Positions 7,386-16,613 of a DNA stretch of 24,000 bases are shown here, piece after piece. Numbering within the stretch: the first letter of the stretch is position 1; the number at the start of each line of letters is the position of its first letter. The stretch spans positions 645 through 24,644 of the forward strand of contig JANQMM010000059.1 in assembly GCA_028280145.1 (NCBI GenBank). Direction: 5' to 3'. The position numbers and the translations under genes are program-made. Origin of the DNA: Minisyncoccota bacterium. Lineage in GTDB: Bacteria > Patescibacteriota > Minisyncoccia > Phycocordibacterales > JACZSL01. The notes beneath the pieces were generated by a model. That model did not search any database and was not told where the DNA came from. It worked only from the letters and a program-made list of their open reading frames with translations.

Positions 7386-8144
7386 TTAAGACACAATATC
7401 CCAAAGTAGCTTAAACATGTTTCGCATATCATTTGCAAGCAATGGATCCTTGATTTCTACCAGATGAAACGGCCTGTTCTTAGTATTTATGTGTACCACA
7501 TACTCTCCCGCAACCCACGTTGTAGATTCAAAAGACTCTGACTTGGCAAAATATTTCATTTCTCTTCGTTTACACTTCCCCTCAAGCCTCCTTTCGCCGC
7601 CAGACTTGTTGCTAAGCAACTTAACGAAGAACATTTCATTATTCTCTTTCCAGTCCCACTTGATCATGTCTCCGAAACAATCAACAAATGAAGTATCCTG
7701 AAAACCCCAACACGTTGAATCAATCAGATCCATGCTGTCGTGCCAAACACCTAGTCGAGACTTAAGGAATCTTTCAAGCTCTTTCTCTTGAACAAAACGA
7801 ACCTGAGGAATATGTGATGCGTGCGAGTTTTTCTTTCGAGAAACCTCTGCCGCCAACGCTGTGTACGCATTTACTTTTCTTCTATTCTTCGCTTCTTCAT
7901 CTTTTGCGTATTGTTCGATCTCTCTTGGTGTTGCAAGAGAGTATTGAGCCGGCCGCTTCGTATCATCCTCTGAGGCCAATCCCTGCTCTGAAAGGCTTCC
8001 GCATATGTTATAGACTGTGGTTCGTTTTAACCCCGTCTTTTTTGCAATATCACTTGCTGACAAGTTGTCATACTCGAAAAGAACACGAAGAACTTGGCCT
8101 TCATTTGAACTAAGGTTCAACTTTTTGACTATGTTTTTATTCAT
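7386..8144 (-). CDS. TrmB-like winged-helix transcriptional regulator (paralog A)
   Basis: The N-terminus (..LSSNEGQVLRVLFEYDNLSASDIAKKTGLKRTTVYNICGSLSEQGL) is a TrmB/MarR-type wHTH. It has the same length and architecture as the 14851..15600 product. Confidence 0.7.
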   Translation of the reverse strand: MNKNIVKKLNLSSNEGQVLRVLFEYDNLSASDIAKKTGLKRTTVYNICGSLSEQGLASEDDTKRPAQYSLATPREIEQYAKDEEAKNRRKVNAYTALAAEVSRKKNSHASHIPQVRFVQEKELERFLKSRLGVWHDSMDLIDSTCWGFQDTSFVDCFGDMIKWDWKENNEMFFVKLLSNKSGGERRLEGKCKRREMKYFAKSESFESTTWVAGEYVVHINTKNRPFHLVEIKDPLLANDMRNMFKLLWDIVS

Positions 8145-9870: not shown

Positions 9871-9946
9871 TGGTGGGCGATGAGGGACTTGAACCCCCGG
9901 CCTTTTCGGTGTAAACGAACTGCTCTACCAACTGAGCTAATCGCCC
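9871..9946 (-). tRNA. tRNA-Val (anticodon UAC), CCA encoded
   Basis: The minus strand reads gggcgat-ta-gctcagttggtagagc-a-gttcg-ttTACac-cgaaa-aggcc-ggggg-ttcaagt-ccctc-atcgccc-a-cca. Confidence 0.9.
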
Positions 9947-12506: not shown

Positions 12507-12593
12507 GCCCAGGTGGCGGAATTGGTAGACGCGCTACCTTGAGGGGGTAGTGTCCTTATGGGCGTGCTGGTTCAACTCCAGTCCTGGGCACCA
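12507..12593 (+). tRNA. tRNA-Leu (anticodon GAG), type II, CCA encoded
   Basis: Fold: acceptor gcccagg/cctgggc, anticodon stem ctacc/ggtag with loop ttGAGgg, long variable arm, T arm gctgg-ttcaact-ccagt. Confidence 0.9.
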
Positions 12594-12629: not shown

Positions 12630-12693
12630 TTAACGAATGAGGGACTTGCGACGAAATGAGTTTAGAACTGGCGCCAAGTCCCTCATCGCCCAC
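12630..12693 (+). repeat. Left 64 bp direct repeat (att-like); its last 19 nt equal the 3' end of tRNA-Val
   Basis: ttaacgaatgagggacttgcgacgaaatgagtttagaactggcgccaagtccctcatcgcccac is identical base for base to 15837-15900. It has an internal 12 bp hairpin (12637-12648 / 12675-12686). Confidence 0.9.
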
Positions 12694-12694
12694 A

Positions 12695-12735
12695 AAACCA
12701 AAAACTTCCAGCTTTTTGCTGGGAGTTTTTGGTTT
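12695..12735. repeat. 18 bp-stem hairpin abutting the left repeat
   Basis: aaaccaaaaacttccagc-ttttt-gctgggagtttttggttt pairs with one mismatch. Confidence 0.7.
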
Positions 12736-12740
12736 CAGTG

Positions 12741-12884
12741 AATGAAAGAAGTGGGACTTGAAAGGCGCAGACGCGCCCGCGGGGCGGGAGAAAGCGTCGA
12801 GCCGGGGTCGCGAGCACTTAGTATTTTGCAAAGTATTGAAGCAAAATACTTAGTGACTTGTGACCAAGTCCGAGATCGCTCACC
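12741..12884. repeat. Degenerate third copy of the repeat motif with an expanded GC-rich spacer
   Basis: The left arm gaatga-aagaagt-gggacttg (12741-12760) is the repeat's left arm with a 7 nt insertion. The right arm ccaagtccgagatcgctcac (12864-12883) matches 16/20 to ccaagtccctcatcgcccac. Confidence 0.6.
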
Positions 12885-12899
12885 AGAAATGTTTTCTTG

Positions 12900-13301
12900 C
12901 CCTGAACTGGCAAGGTCTTGGAGTAGCTCCTGCGGTAGTTTTAACTTAATATGAAGCCGATTAGAGATTTGTTGTCCTGCTTTTTTGATACCCGCAATGA
13001 CATCTTCTTTGCGTCGGGGACGAGAATAAACAACTATTTCTTCAATTAGTTTATGGAGTATCTCTCTTGTCTCCTTTCTATTTTCAAAAGCTTTCTTTAA
13101 GGCAGGTCTATATTCCTTTGAAAACAATTTGAGACTTTCATAGTATCCCTTTGTTAGCGTATGTTCTGCAATTTGTCACCTAATATCACTCAACTTTTCT
13201 TGAAAACGCTTTTGGTCTTCAATAACTTCATTCATTTTTTTCTTTAACTCTTTCAAATCAATAATTCTATGTTCGTATTGTACGTTTTCTGACCATACCT
13301 C
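12900..13301 (-). pseudogene. C-terminal fragment of a recombinase (large-serine-recombinase-like coiled-coil tail), N-terminally truncated with an in-frame stop
   Basis: Hand translation on the minus strand: EVWSENVQYEHRIIDLKELKKKMNEVIEDQKRFQEKLSDIR*QIAEHTLTKGYYESLKLFSKEYRPALKKAFENRKETREILHKLIEEIVVYSRP. There is a stop at 13176-13178, and no catalytic domain lies upstream (stop at 13302-13304). The tail resembles the ..EKRELLTCFKNTIVL.. end of the intact recombinase at 21067..22344. The boundaries are approximate. Confidence 0.4.
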
Positions 13302-13378: not shown

Positions 13379-14710
13379 TCAATATTTTGCAGGTGCTAAA
13401 AAGAAACCGAGGTAGTGTTGTAGTTCTTCCATGTTTAGTTTTTCTCCATTTCGCAACTTTGATTCAGCGTCTACAGAAATTGGAATTTTGAAATAATCTT
13501 CAAGTTTCTCTACCTCAAATAACTTTTGGCTATTGTATCCACCTGCAACTCCAACATGCGTAACTCCTTTTTTTACTACTCTCATAACATCGCTTTGAGT
13601 GCGTTCTATATGAGCTTGTCTCCCTGTTCCAAAACTTTCATCTAAAAGGAGATAGGTATTGTTCAACTGCAAGTATTCAACTAGCTTTTCATTTTCTAAT
13701 AATGCATACTGGCTTCTTTTCAGTTGAAAAATTGTATACTCTCCTTGAAGAGAATCAATTACATCCAAGTCAGGTTTCTTCGAGATAGACTTTTCTTCAA
13801 AGCGTAATTGTAAAGAATATCGAAAGCTAAGCAGAGATAGAAAAGACTTTAACTCCCTATAAAACATCCTTCGCTCAAGGTAGTCTAAATGAAGAACAAT
13901 TGATACACGCTCTGTATGCTCAAAATGTTTCGCGAATCGATTTAATTCTTCAGCCAAACCAGTATCTTGCAGGTCTCCATTTTGTGGATATATAGGAACC
14001 CCAAGAAATATCTTTCGACTAACAGAACTTGCATCAAAAGTACGAACAATTTTAGATACCTCATCACCTCTTGTTAAATCTTTCCGAAAAAGAGTGGCAC
14101 CTACGTATGGGTTAAAAGTAGGGGCATAATGAAGAAATTTATGTCGTTTAGTTTGCGCGTATTCTCTATTTTCGAACGTTGTCCCAACGTCTAATGGAGT
14201 ACTGACAACAGGATAACCTTCTCGCTCCAATATGAGCTTCTTGTGGTAGTTGTTGGACAAAAGTGTAATCTTACTTTTTTTGCCATGCAGTAATTCATCT
14301 AGTACTTGAATCACAGAAGAATACTCACGAGCATCAGGGCTACCACTAATACGAATATTTGCATCATGTGTATCTAAACCCTTATACATTAGGTTATATG
14401 CTTGTATTTTTTTGAAGAGTCCAATATTCCGACCTTCTTGCCTATGATATATGAGTATCCCGTTCCCGTGCTTAGCAATTGCCTTTAGGGCTTCATCTTT
14501 TTGCTGGCCGCAATCACAAGAGAGTGAGCTAAAAGTATCCCCTGTTATACATTCAGAATGAATCCGTAAGAGTATCTCTCTTAAAGGGTCTAAAGATGGT
14601 GTAGAAAGTGCAACTGATTCTTGTCCTCGTTTCCCATCCCAAACCCACACATTAAACATGCCGTACTTTGTAGCCATAGATGTATATACAGCTTCTTTTT
14701 TTGTTTTCAT
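13379..14710 (-). CDS. GTP cyclohydrolase II (RibA-like) fused to a C-terminal PRAI/TrpF-like TIM-barrel domain
   Basis: The N-terminus has RIHSECITGDTFSSLSCDCGQQ (Cys54/65/67) and QEGRNIGLFKKIQAYNLMYKGLDTHDAN, which are RibA signatures. The C-terminus ..HVGVAGGYN...IPISVDAESKLRNGEKLNMEEL resembles the TrpF end LAGGL...GVDVSSGVE..G.KD. Confidence 0.7.
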   Translation of the reverse strand: MKTKKEAVYTSMATKYGMFNVWVWDGKRGQESVALSTPSLDPLREILLRIHSECITGDTFSSLSCDCGQQKDEALKAIAKHGNGILIYHRQEGRNIGLFKKIQAYNLMYKGLDTHDANIRISGSPDAREYSSVIQVLDELLHGKKSKITLLSNNYHKKLILEREGYPVVSTPLDVGTTFENREYAQTKRHKFLHYAPTFNPYVGATLFRKDLTRGDEVSKIVRTFDASSVSRKIFLGVPIYPQNGDLQDTGLAEELNRFAKHFEHTERVSIVLHLDYLERRMFYRELKSFLSLLSFRYSLQLRFEEKSISKKPDLDVIDSLQGEYTIFQLKRSQYALLENEKLVEYLQLNNTYLLLDESFGTGRQAHIERTQSDVMRVVKKGVTHVGVAGGYNSQKLFEVEKLEDYFKIPISVDAESKLRNGEKLNMEELQHYLGFFLAPAKY

Positions 14711-14716
14711 GCCAAT

Positions 14717-14722
14717 ATTTTA
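14717..14722 (-). promoter_or_regulatory. -10 box TAAAAT 6 nt upstream of the GTP cyclohydrolase II fusion ATG (leaderless type)
   Basis: The minus strand reads taaaat-attggc-ATG, with the ATG at 14710. Confidence 0.45.
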
Positions 14723-14812
14723 GTGGAAATAGTAAGTACTGCTCATTTTTCCGTCATTTAGTTAAAAAGTTGGCTTAGATACTGCTTAAATGATGATATA
14801 TATGTACAAAAG

Positions 14813-14852
14813 TGTCAGATATATTGACATATTGTTAAATATTTAGTAGTAT
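14813..14852 (+). promoter_or_regulatory. Promoter TTGACA-17-TAGTAT overlapped by palindrome TGTCA-N7-TGACA (candidate TrmB-like operator)
   Basis: The -35 is at 14824-14829 and the -10 at 14847-14852. The palindrome halves are at 14813-14817 and 14825-14829. Confidence 0.5.
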
Positions 14853-15600
14853 GAAGCTACACATGGAAACAATCTCTACTAAATCCCTACAGGAAGCAGG
14901 TCTTTCAGAAATTGAGTCAAAAATATACTTATCTTTGTTGAAATCACAAAAAATGACAGTTTCGGAGATTGCACGCGCTACAGATACAAAGCGTCCCACC
15001 TGCTACCAATATTTAGACCTGCTGTTATCTAAGGATTTCATCATTCGTGTCCCTATTGGGAAAAGAATGTATTACAGTGCCGTGAGTCCAAAAAAGGTTT
15101 TATCCGCGGCACGAAAGCGCTACGAGGCCTTCGAGGCCGTTTCTGATGAAATGATGAAACAATACGAAGAGTCTACTCATAAACCACAGGTTGCTTTTTA
15201 CGAAGGGAAACGTGAATTAAAAAATATCTACGATGACTTATTCAAGACTGTTGGGGATATATATTCAATCTTTCCACCAACCGCCTTTTTCGAAAACTTT
15301 ACAGAACAAGAGTATGACGAATTTGATTCTTCAATCAGTCAATATGCGATTAAAAGTAAGGATTTAATTGTAGAAGATAAACATTTTAAGCGTGTTAGTC
15401 AGATACGCAAAAAGAATGGGGTAGAAAATAAAGTAACAAAGAAATTACCAGAATCGTTCAAAACTAATGTGGATGTTCTGGTTTATAACAACAAGGTTGC
15501 CCTTATTAGCTTACGTGATTTATCTGCCTTAGTGATTGAAAATAAGGATATAGCAGACTTGTTTAAGAGTATCCATACATCAATGTGGAAATCACATTAA
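14851..15600 (+). CDS. TrmB-like winged-helix transcriptional regulator (paralog B)
   Basis: LQEAGLSEIESKIYLSLLKSQKMTVSEIARATDTKRPTCYQYLDLLLSKDFI is a TrmB-type wHTH. The -10 box overlaps the ATG at 14851, so the real start is probably ATG 14863 (METIST..). Confidence 0.7.
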   Translation: MKLHMETISTKSLQEAGLSEIESKIYLSLLKSQKMTVSEIARATDTKRPTCYQYLDLLLSKDFIIRVPIGKRMYYSAVSPKKVLSAARKRYEAFEAVSDEMMKQYEESTHKPQVAFYEGKRELKNIYDDLFKTVGDIYSIFPPTAFFENFTEQEYDEFDSSISQYAIKSKDLIVEDKHFKRVSQIRKKNGVENKVTKKLPESFKTNVDVLVYNNKVALISLRDLSALVIENKDIADLFKSIHTSMWKSH

Positions 15601-15836: not shown

Positions 15837-15900
15837 TTAACGAATGAGGGACTTGCGACGAAATGAGTTTAGAACTGGCGCCAAGTCCCTCATCGCCCAC
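15837..15900 (+). repeat. Right 64 bp direct repeat (att-like)
   Basis: It is identical to 12630-12693. The flanking bases differ on both sides (t vs c upstream, aaaacc vs cgcacc downstream). Confidence 0.9.
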
Positions 15901-16418: not shown

Positions 16419-16425
16419 ATTGCTG

Positions 16426-16497
16426 TACCCCCGAGAGGAATCGAACCCCTATCAAGAGCTTAGAAGTCTCCAGTTTTATCCATTAAACTACGGGGGC
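16426..16497 (-). tRNA. tRNA-Arg (anticodon UCU)
   Basis: The minus strand reads gcccccg-ta-gttt-aatggata-aaac-t-ggaga-ctTCTaa-gctct-tgat-agggg-ttcgatt-cctct-cgggggt-a. It has a G1-U72 wobble and an A31-G39 mismatch. CCA is not encoded. Confidence 0.8.
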
Positions 16498-16546
16498 TAT
16501 ATACAAAATTATATGCCAATCTACCACCTGAAAGAAAATAGAGGCT

Positions 16547-16613
16547 GGAGACTTCTTCGTCTCCCGGTTCGATAACCTCCCAGGTTATCTCACTCCATTA
16601 AACTACGGGGGCT
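16547..16613 (-). pseudogene. tRNA-like fragment sharing the first 19 nt of tRNA-Arg; does not fold as a cloverleaf
   Basis: tccattaaactacgggggct at 16594-16613 is identical to 16479-16498. It is followed on the minus strand by two hairpins (gataacc-tggga-ggttatc and ggagac-gaagaa-gtctcc). There is no T-loop and no 3' acceptor strand. Confidence 0.3.

Follow-up and report, generated by a model that had tools for sequence, protein, structure and literature searches.

The 24,000-nucleotide stretch of a Minisyncoccota bacterium genome analysed here in full (assembly GCA_028280145.1, contig JANQMM010000059.1, positions 645 to 24,644; hereafter the window) carries a gene for a two-domain protein, in which a GTP cyclohydrolase II (RibA) is followed by a (βα)8 barrel related to phosphoribosylanthranilate isomerase (PRAI; TrpF). 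Judged from profile comparisons and motifs, the barrel represents a distinct, uncharacterised PRAI-homologous family and not a bona fide PRAI. The fusion is quite possibly a two-step enzyme that would convert GTP to 2,5-diamino-6-ribosylamino-4(3H)-pyrimidinone 5'-phosphate (DARP) and carry the latter, by an Amadori-type isomerisation, towards dihydroneopterin phosphate, destined for a specialised metabolite rather than for folate. The gene belongs to an accessory module that is rare, moves horizontally and has its own regulator of the TrmB type, the product of the module being most likely a pterin-like or pyrimidine specialised metabolite. The positions of all the features are collected in Table 1.

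The GTP cyclohydrolase II domain

The first-pass annotation of the window, made from the sequence alone, had recognised the hallmarks of RibA in the N-terminal domain, and the searches bear this out. Residues 9–196 of the fusion match the GTP cyclohydrolase II family PF00925 with an E value of 6.6e-40 and 136.8 bits (cut-off 23.3), and the domain also exceeds the cut-off of the NCBIfam model of the RibA subfamily, NF001591 (174.5 bits vs 148). With regard to the strict equivalog model TIGR00505, its score is under the cut-off (161.3 bits vs 205.85), this half of the fusion being a divergent RibA. The E. coli RibA 2bz0 is matched at 2.7e-33, residues 11–194 of the fusion lying on residues 10–192 of 2bz0, and in Foldseek the RibA half of the full-length model matches both 4rl4 and 2bz0 (TMt 0.8), with 40% identity to the latter in the alignment.

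The zinc motif CX2GX7CXC is formed by Cys54, Gly57, Cys65 and Cys67, in E. coli numbering, and these four residues are invariant in an alignment of 30 homologues, together with Tyr105 and Arg128, which also stand at their E. coli numbers. The role of Tyr105 in RibA is said to have been described by Ren et al. in 2005. For the zinc motif and Arg128, the functions—in the case of the latter, the release of pyrophosphate—are described in PMC10366380. The conservation of all the residues checked supports a domain that would be catalytically complete. The full-length homologues of the fusion, about 30 in number, are 37–54% identical across the C-terminal domain, and the Pfam domain GTP_cyclohydro2 is listed for each of them. 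The likeness to E. coli RibA and to the bifunctional RibBA thus covers the N-terminal 196 residues, the zinc motif, Tyr105 and Arg128, with the same numbering, while the difference concerns the partner: the known one is DHBP synthase (RibB), positioned N-terminally, whereas here it is a PRAI-like barrel, positioned C-terminally. A further difference from the known RibA pathways is that neither RibD nor RibH has been found in the genome carrying the fusion.

The PRAI-like barrel

Residues 197–443 match no model in Pfam or NCBIfam. Structure prediction for this region gave a TIM-barrel fold with high confidence: the AlphaFold2 model of the full-length protein, based on a 30-sequence alignment, consists of two domains (predicted local distance difference test, pLDDT, 87; predicted TM-score, pTM, 0.85), that of the isolated C-terminal domain has pLDDT 87 and pTM 0.88, and the eight β-α units span residues 202–437.

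The relationship to TrpF comes from the profiles. In hhalign, the alignment of the close barrel family matches TrpF at 91.2% (E 1e-6) and that of the wide family at 97.7% (E 1e-12) over 182 columns, i.e. nearly the entire barrel, the controls being at 0.8–2.7% for triosephosphate isomerase (TPI) and 0.3–1.6% for HisA/HisF. The reference alignments comprised 12 TrpF, 12 TPI and 16 HisA/HisF sequences from 12 unrelated genomes, drawn via 80 ordinary RibA loci, none of which held the fusion family. The Pfam family PRAI is matched by 9 of the 18 close relatives (best 2.8e-5) and, at E<0.01, by 29 of the 65 representatives of the wide family (best 2.8e-10), one relative, P0038, standing just under the gathering threshold (22.6 bits vs 22.7). 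When the profile of the barrel domain was run against the sequences of the PDB, the PRAI from Pyrococcus (4aaj) ranked best, at an E value of only 0.16.

Concerning the individual motifs, the barrel family can be aligned with TrpF at strand β4 (YSLQFR vs VQLHG), at β6 (LLLDES vs LLD, the latter with the general-acid Asp), in the loop after β6 (GTG vs GGTG), at β7 (VAGGY vs LAGGL) and at β8 (SVDAES..G.L..E vs GVDVSSGVE..G.KD..K). The aligned positions include the Gln of β4, the acid Asp of β6, the GxG loop, the AGG of β7 and the D-x-S of β8. The VGVAGGYN near the C-terminus had already been likened to the phosphate-binding end of PRAI, and indeed VGVAGGY aligns with β7 of TrpF (LAGGL) and the subsequent ISVDAES with its β8 (GVDVSS). 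At β1, the family has GVT, with Thr206 in the window protein, vs ICG in TrpF, where the general-base Cys belongs to the motif KICG. Five polar residues, H274, Q301, D357, S359 and D414, are invariant in 65/65 representatives of the wide family, D357 being the one aligned to the Asp of the TrpF LLD, and the phosphate-binding glycines are nearly invariant. The barrel thus retains the ring-opening acid and the phosphate grip, with a different candidate base. In comparison with TrpF (PF00697), it therefore shares the (βα)8 fold, the aligned motifs and hhalign values of 91–98%; it differs in being about 50 residues longer, in staying below every Pfam threshold in the case of the window protein, in having Thr/Ser instead of the Cys general base and a new invariant His on β3, and in occurring in a genome where no trp genes have been found.

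Distribution and domain architectures

The family is small. When 5.8 billion protein clusters were searched with a word index, 31 relatives besides the window protein emerged, mostly of about 440 residues and all listed with GTP_cyclohydro2, one of them named from Candidatus Uhrbacteria. Exhaustive searching of 1.84 billion representatives with a profile gave no more than 86 proteins at E<1e-3. In a sample of 401 Patescibacteria spread over the phylum, the fusion was detected in its own genome only, and among 401 genomes of the same order, it was detected in two more (G691 and G435), which gives 3 of about 800 sampled Patescibacteria genomes overall. The fusion from G691 is of the two-domain form, exhibiting 49–55% identity to the window protein, and that from G435 is of a three-domain form with 661 residues. 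In public records, these proteins are labelled 'GTP cyclohydrolase II' or 'hypothetical protein'. The literature search found neither a RibA-PRAI fusion nor pterin synthesis in Patescibacteria; it did find the two-enzyme bypass of Chlamydia discussed below.

Five architectures have been recognised: RibA + barrel; RibA + barrel + S-adenosylmethionine (SAM) methyltransferase of the MTS type (about 660 residues); barrel + methyltransferase, some of which may be gene fragments; MerR-type helix-turn-helix + RibA + barrel; and the standalone barrel of 220–290 residues. RibA is joined to the barrel in 16 of the 65 representatives of the wide family. The three-domain proteins P0041 and P0056 originate from Chlamydiia and Parachlamydiales genomes. 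The MerR architecture is exemplified by P0047 (489 residues, from a 2.7-kb metagenome contig), which unites a regulator and an enzyme in one polypeptide. Two standalone barrels from RibA-less Patescibacteria (L098, 1456–2286, and L099, 1426–2199, both on the minus strand) exhibit the pattern GVTG ... LLDPSGGTGK ... AGGL ... SIDAESKLR.

Pathway genes in the carrier genomes

The genome that harbours the window has 824 kb and is 93% complete. Whole-genome profile searches found in it no FolE, FolB, HPPK (FolK), FolP or PTPS/QueD, and no lumazine synthase (RibH), RibD reductase (RibD_C) or canonical PRAI, the same searches detecting these families in 10–14 of 14 control genomes. Nor were any trp genes found there. 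The earlier observation that the window contains no other riboflavin or tryptophan genes can thus be extended to the rest of the 824-kb genome. As far as the other carriers are concerned, searches for FolP were negative in G691, G806, G807 and G808, as were those for PTPS in the two genomes tested for it, G691 and G435; the sole FolP match among these carriers is a partial one in G435, where it lies at the end of a contig. Since no genes for folate, queuosine or riboflavin synthesis were found, the product would not feed these pathways in most carriers. No homologue of the methyltransferase associated with some members of the family was found in the genome of the window.

Proposed reaction

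The product of RibA is an N-ribosylamine 5'-phosphate, and barrels of the PRAI, HisA and PriA types catalyse the Amadori rearrangement of such compounds. This chemical logic, i.e. that the ribosylamine made by RibA belongs to the substrate class of PRAI-type barrels, was part of the first-pass annotation, and it has an experimental precedent in Chlamydia, the TrpF of which turns the purified RibA product into dihydroneopterin monophosphate (H2NMP), while the TrpF of E. coli does not complement folE (PMC4161248).

In the first step of the reaction proposed for the fusion, which is the step supported by its sequence, the RibA domain would open and deformylate the imidazole ring of GTP and release pyrophosphate, yielding DARP. 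In the second step, the barrel would grip the 5'-phosphate of DARP via the conserved glycine and serine motifs of β7 and β8, Asp357 of β6 would act as the acid opening the ribosylamine ring, and an Amadori-type aldose-to-ketose isomerisation would follow, with His274 or another invariant polar residue serving as the base in place of the TrpF Cys. In the third step, the ribulosylamino product would close on the 5-amino group to give 7,8-dihydroneopterin 3'-phosphate, as with the RibA plus TrpF of Chlamydia. In relatives, the product would probably be methylated by the fused or adjacent MTS-type methyltransferase, and it may be exported, because transporter genes lie nearby. The predicted net reaction—ring opening and deformylation, Amadori rearrangement and closure to dihydroneopterin phosphate—resembles that of GTP cyclohydrolase I (FolE), from which the fusion differs by its unrelated fold, by a predicted product that is a monophosphate and not a triphosphate, and by the division of the steps over two domains.

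The closest known system is the RibA + TrpF bypass of FolE/FolQ in Chlamydia (Adams et al. 2014, mBio, PMC4161248). The two have in common the pairing of a GTP cyclohydrolase II with a PRAI-type barrel, the absence of FolE and, by analogy, the chemistry that may be expected, leading from DARP through the Amadori rearrangement to 7,8-dihydroneopterin monophosphate; moreover, the three-domain relatives of the present family occur in environmental Chlamydiia. They differ in that here both domains form one polypeptide, the barrel represents a separate divergent family without the catalytic Cys of TrpF, the downstream FolB, FolK and FolP have not been found, and there is a TrmB regulator, with methyltransferases and sometimes transporters nearby in the relatives.

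Several results weigh against this two-step reading. The window protein has no match to Pfam PRAI (PF00697) even at an E value of 10. Foldseek searches of the PDB with the barrel put triosephosphate isomerases first (E ~1e-6, TM 0.5–0.58, root-mean-square deviation, rmsd, 5–6 Å, 9–14% identity), and for the barrel, both the full-length and the barrel-only models gave matches to generic TIM barrels, with no PRAI in the top 50. In none of the 65 representatives is there a Cys at the β1 position opposite the TrpF Cys, the residues there being Thr in 33 and Ser in 14, so an Amadori chemistry would need a different base. The standalone barrels are present in genomes without any RibA (G185 and G021), and the barrel is thus not obligatorily tied to DARP. 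Finally, no consumer of pterins was found in the genome of the window, and since this genome is 93% complete, the gene absences listed above are not proof.

It should be pointed out that PRAI is neither confirmed nor excluded by the structure search. A triosephosphate isomerase was also considered for the barrel and rejected: it shares with the barrel the top Foldseek places, a similar size and an aldose-ketose isomerase chemistry on a phosphorylated sugar, but an rmsd of more than 5 Å, the low TM values and identity, and hhalign values of 0.8–2.7% indicate a generic fold likeness only. The TrpF/PRAI-like barrel of the first-pass annotation therefore stands with respect to profile homology and (βα)8 fold, but the missing Pfam match, the lost Cys and the generic Foldseek results do not go along with it. 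Of the catalytic residues, the loss of which was named there as speaking against the proposal, the acid Asp is kept, as are the phosphate motifs, whereas the Cys general base has given way to Thr/Ser.

The regulator and neighbouring genes

The divergently transcribed TrmB-like gene had been noticed as the partner of the fusion from the beginning. Its product scores 57.2 bits in PF01978 (cut-off 25.6), and a divergent TrmB neighbour of 245–263 residues is found at all eight two-domain loci examined, i.e. the window, L001/L002 (the same protein), L003, the contig of P0005, L138, L145, L146 and L147. The other flanking genes vary between these loci and include an ATP synthase with MurD, rpsL-rpsG, a CCA-adding enzyme and others. 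The Mur-ligase neighbour of the fusion in L001, followed as a possible FolC and thus as a lead to folate, turned out to be MurD. The regulator of the window is 79% identical to that of G691, which exceeds the identity of the two enzymes (49–55%).

The spacer between the two genes contains a palindrome of the form TGTC-N9-GACA in 4/4 loci checked, 0.3 occurrences being expected per 24 kb. Its halves overlap −35-like hexamers on both strands, although such hexamers are not enriched over shuffled sequences. From this pattern we infer that the palindrome would fit an operator at divergent promoters. Immediately in front of the fusion (14711–14728, minus strand), the hexamer TAAAAT is followed by 6 nt (ATTGGC) and the ATG, an arrangement that would fit a leaderless transcript. 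The spacer has another conserved motif, GACGGAAAAAT(G/A)AGCA, which is common to the window and L138. The window also encodes a second regulator of the TrmB family (7386–8144, minus strand, 252 residues, PF01978 at 4.2e-11), which is 22% identical to the one accompanying the fusion, and in relatives several TrmB paralogues adjoin accessory genes, for instance three in L147 and one beside an amino-acid permease in L003.

Downstream of the fusion, an MTS methyltransferase gene begins 7 nt past it in L146, and an EamA transporter gene follows it directly in L003. In G435 (L143, 4222–10004), the genes downstream of the 661-residue fusion, all on its strand, encode a membrane protein, an ATP-binding cassette (ABC) ATPase and two ABC-2 permeases, and the fusion has no TrmB neighbour. 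Two chlamydial loci (L148, 9001–12971, and L150, 9001–13680) keep a trio consisting of the three-domain fusion, a second SAM methyltransferase (241–247 residues) and a major facilitator superfamily (MFS) transporter (419 residues), an arrangement reminiscent of a small gene cluster for the biosynthesis of a methylated compound derived from GTP.

The island

That the fusion is the cargo of an island, as had been claimed in the first-pass annotation, is borne out by the 64-nt repeats, the low GC content, the adjacent tRNA gene and the recombinase remnant. The island has 3.2 kb and comprises the fusion gene, the TrmB regulator and a recombinase-like remnant between perfect 64-nt direct repeats, of which the whole genome contains these two copies only. 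The last 19 nt of both repeats (CAAGTCCCTCATCGCCCAC) match the 3' end of a tRNA-Val gene (9871–9946, minus strand) located 2.7 kb away, and the repeat holds an internal inverted copy (GAGGGACTTG ... CAAGTCCCTC); this suggests that a tRNA-Val 3' end was formerly the target of an element. In the remnant, two neighbouring frames are separated by one stop; they resemble a large serine recombinase in its coiled-coil and C-terminal part, and the remnant is probably what is left of the island's integrase after decay. The GC content is 0.35–0.37 in the island vs 0.47 upstream and 0.40–0.42 downstream. Taken together, the repeats, the tRNA association and the low GC content support an old site-specific insertion. 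An empty site was sought in relatives via the neighbouring Nudix gene, the neighbours of which are not syntenic there.

Two more observations were made around the island. A perfect 20-nt direct repeat (16479–16498 and 16594–16613), the first copy of which overlaps the 5' end of a tRNA-Arg(TCT) gene (16425–16497, minus strand), may be a trace of another tRNA-targeted insertion or excision. The ribosomal protein L19 (11779–12432, plus strand, 217 residues) possesses an acidic low-complexity C-terminal tail of about 100 residues.

Table 1 Features of the island and its surroundings, with positions numbered from the first nucleotide of the window
Feature	Position	Strand	Basis
RibA + PRAI-like barrel fusion gene, 443 amino acids plus stop	13379..14710	−	intact open reading frame
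RibA domain, residues 1–196, including the C-terminal RibA tail	14123..14710	−	PF00925, NF001591, 2bz0, Foldseek
PRAI-like (βα)8 barrel, residues 197–443; T206 at the TrpF Cys position	13382..14122	−	AlphaFold2 models, hhalign, Pfam PRAI in relatives
TrmB-family winged-helix regulator, 249 amino acids; true start may be Met5 (14863)	14851..15600	+	PF01978 1.6e-15
Divergent promoter region with palindrome TGTCAGATATATTGACA at 14813–14829	14711..14850	.	motif search, hexamers
Left 64-nt direct repeat; last 19 nt = 3' end of tRNA-Val	12630..12693	+	
Right 64-nt direct repeat, 100% identical to left	15837..15900	+	
tRNA-Leu(GAG), 37 nt left of the left repeat	12507..12593	+	ARAGORN, Rfam
Degraded remnant, large serine recombinase-like (C-terminal part; tentative); stop at 13173–13175	12735..13301	−	stop-to-stop frames, DUF4368 E 0.016 (weak)

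Alternative explanations

Of the two parts of the first hypothesis put forward in the first-pass annotation, a novel pyrimidine or pterin-like metabolite fits the above results best, whereas salvage does not, there being no downstream cofactor pathway in 5/6 fusion-bearing genomes. The strongest rival of the two-step reading, improbable as it is, assumes that the barrel acts on the RibA product without an Amadori rearrangement, e.g. by ring opening and imine hydrolysis to a pentose phosphate and 2,5,6-triaminopyrimidinone, so that the fusion would serve GTP-catabolic pentose phosphate salvage under a sugar-type TrmB regulator. Genomes of the Candidate Phyla Radiation (CPR) channel nucleotides into pentose metabolism, and TrmB-family regulators are sugar-specific according to the Pfam description. 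The retention of the ring-opening Asp with the catalytic Cys of TrpF gone would suit such a reaction too, as would the fact that no pathway using pterin, folate or flavin was found in the genome of the window. The recurrent fusion to, or adjacency with, methyltransferases and the nearby transporters nevertheless point to the heterocycle and not the sugar as the wanted product, and the module is far too rare for a core salvage route.

There is a slim chance that the fusion is a conflict module, i.e. a regulated GTP-consuming enzyme that would deplete GTP or make a toxic antimetabolite against phages or the host cell. Such a conflict or defence role had been the second hypothesis of the first-pass annotation, and it has gained no support: although the island location, the rarity and patchy distribution, the host-dependent lifestyle of the carriers (CPR and environmental chlamydiae) and the transporter genes near the fusion at several loci would agree with it, the protein matches no PADLOC defence family, it is accompanied by no sensor, nuclease or abortive-infection protein, and its sole constant partner is a transcription factor of an ordinary kind.

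Slimmer still is the chance of a fused replacement of GTP cyclohydrolase I, bypassing FolE/FolQ and feeding ordinary folate or queuosine synthesis in a Chlamydia-like manner. The precedent itself (PMC4161248), the FolE not found in the genome of the window, the three-domain version in Chlamydiia and Parachlamydiales genomes and the partial FolP of G435 could be taken as its traces; they are opposed by the FolB, HPPK, FolP and PTPS/QueD not found in the genome of the window, by the FolP not found in the four other carriers named above, and by the FolC-like neighbour being MurD. Least probable of all is a barrel that is a non-catalytic or regulatory appendage, or has a substrate with no relation to the product of RibA. 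The standalone barrels in genomes without RibA and the missing canonical base residue speak for it; against it stand the five invariant polar residues at the strand ends, phosphate-binding glycines conserved as expected of an active site, and RibA and the barrel being kept adjacent in repeated independent architectures.

Returning to the two-step reading, it can be widened into a proposal that is conceivable, if on the unlikely side. The fusion might stand at the centre of a pathway, so far unrecognised and complete in itself, that leads from GTP to a small pterin-like compound or aminopyrimidine in host-dependent bacteria (CPR/Patescibacteria and environmental chlamydiae). In some lineages the product might be methylated once or twice and exported, and instead of being the precursor of a cofactor, it might affect the host or partner cell, whether as a signal, as a redox agent or as an antimetabolite. 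In that case, the barrel would be a new Amadori-type or other ribosylamine-processing family, in which a His/Asp pair replaces the Cys/Asp of TrpF.

Significance

Based on the above results, the fusion is a catalytically altered, fused version of the RibA + TrpF pair in a different physiological setting. The RibA-plus-isomerase route to pterins has so far been shown only with the promiscuous TrpF of Chlamydia; should the fused enzyme prove to form dihydroneopterin phosphate, it would provide natural 'Rosetta stone' evidence that this route is recurrent and not a peculiarity of Chlamydia, and the PRAI barrel would gain a new catalytic variant. With regard to annotation, the label 'GTP cyclohydrolase II' is misleading in CPR and chlamydial genomes, as it implies a riboflavin pathway. 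For the ultra-small symbionts with genomes of less than 1 Mb, a regulated and mobile module in which a single enzyme leads from GTP to a specialised metabolite would be a rare hint of secondary metabolism or host-directed chemistry.

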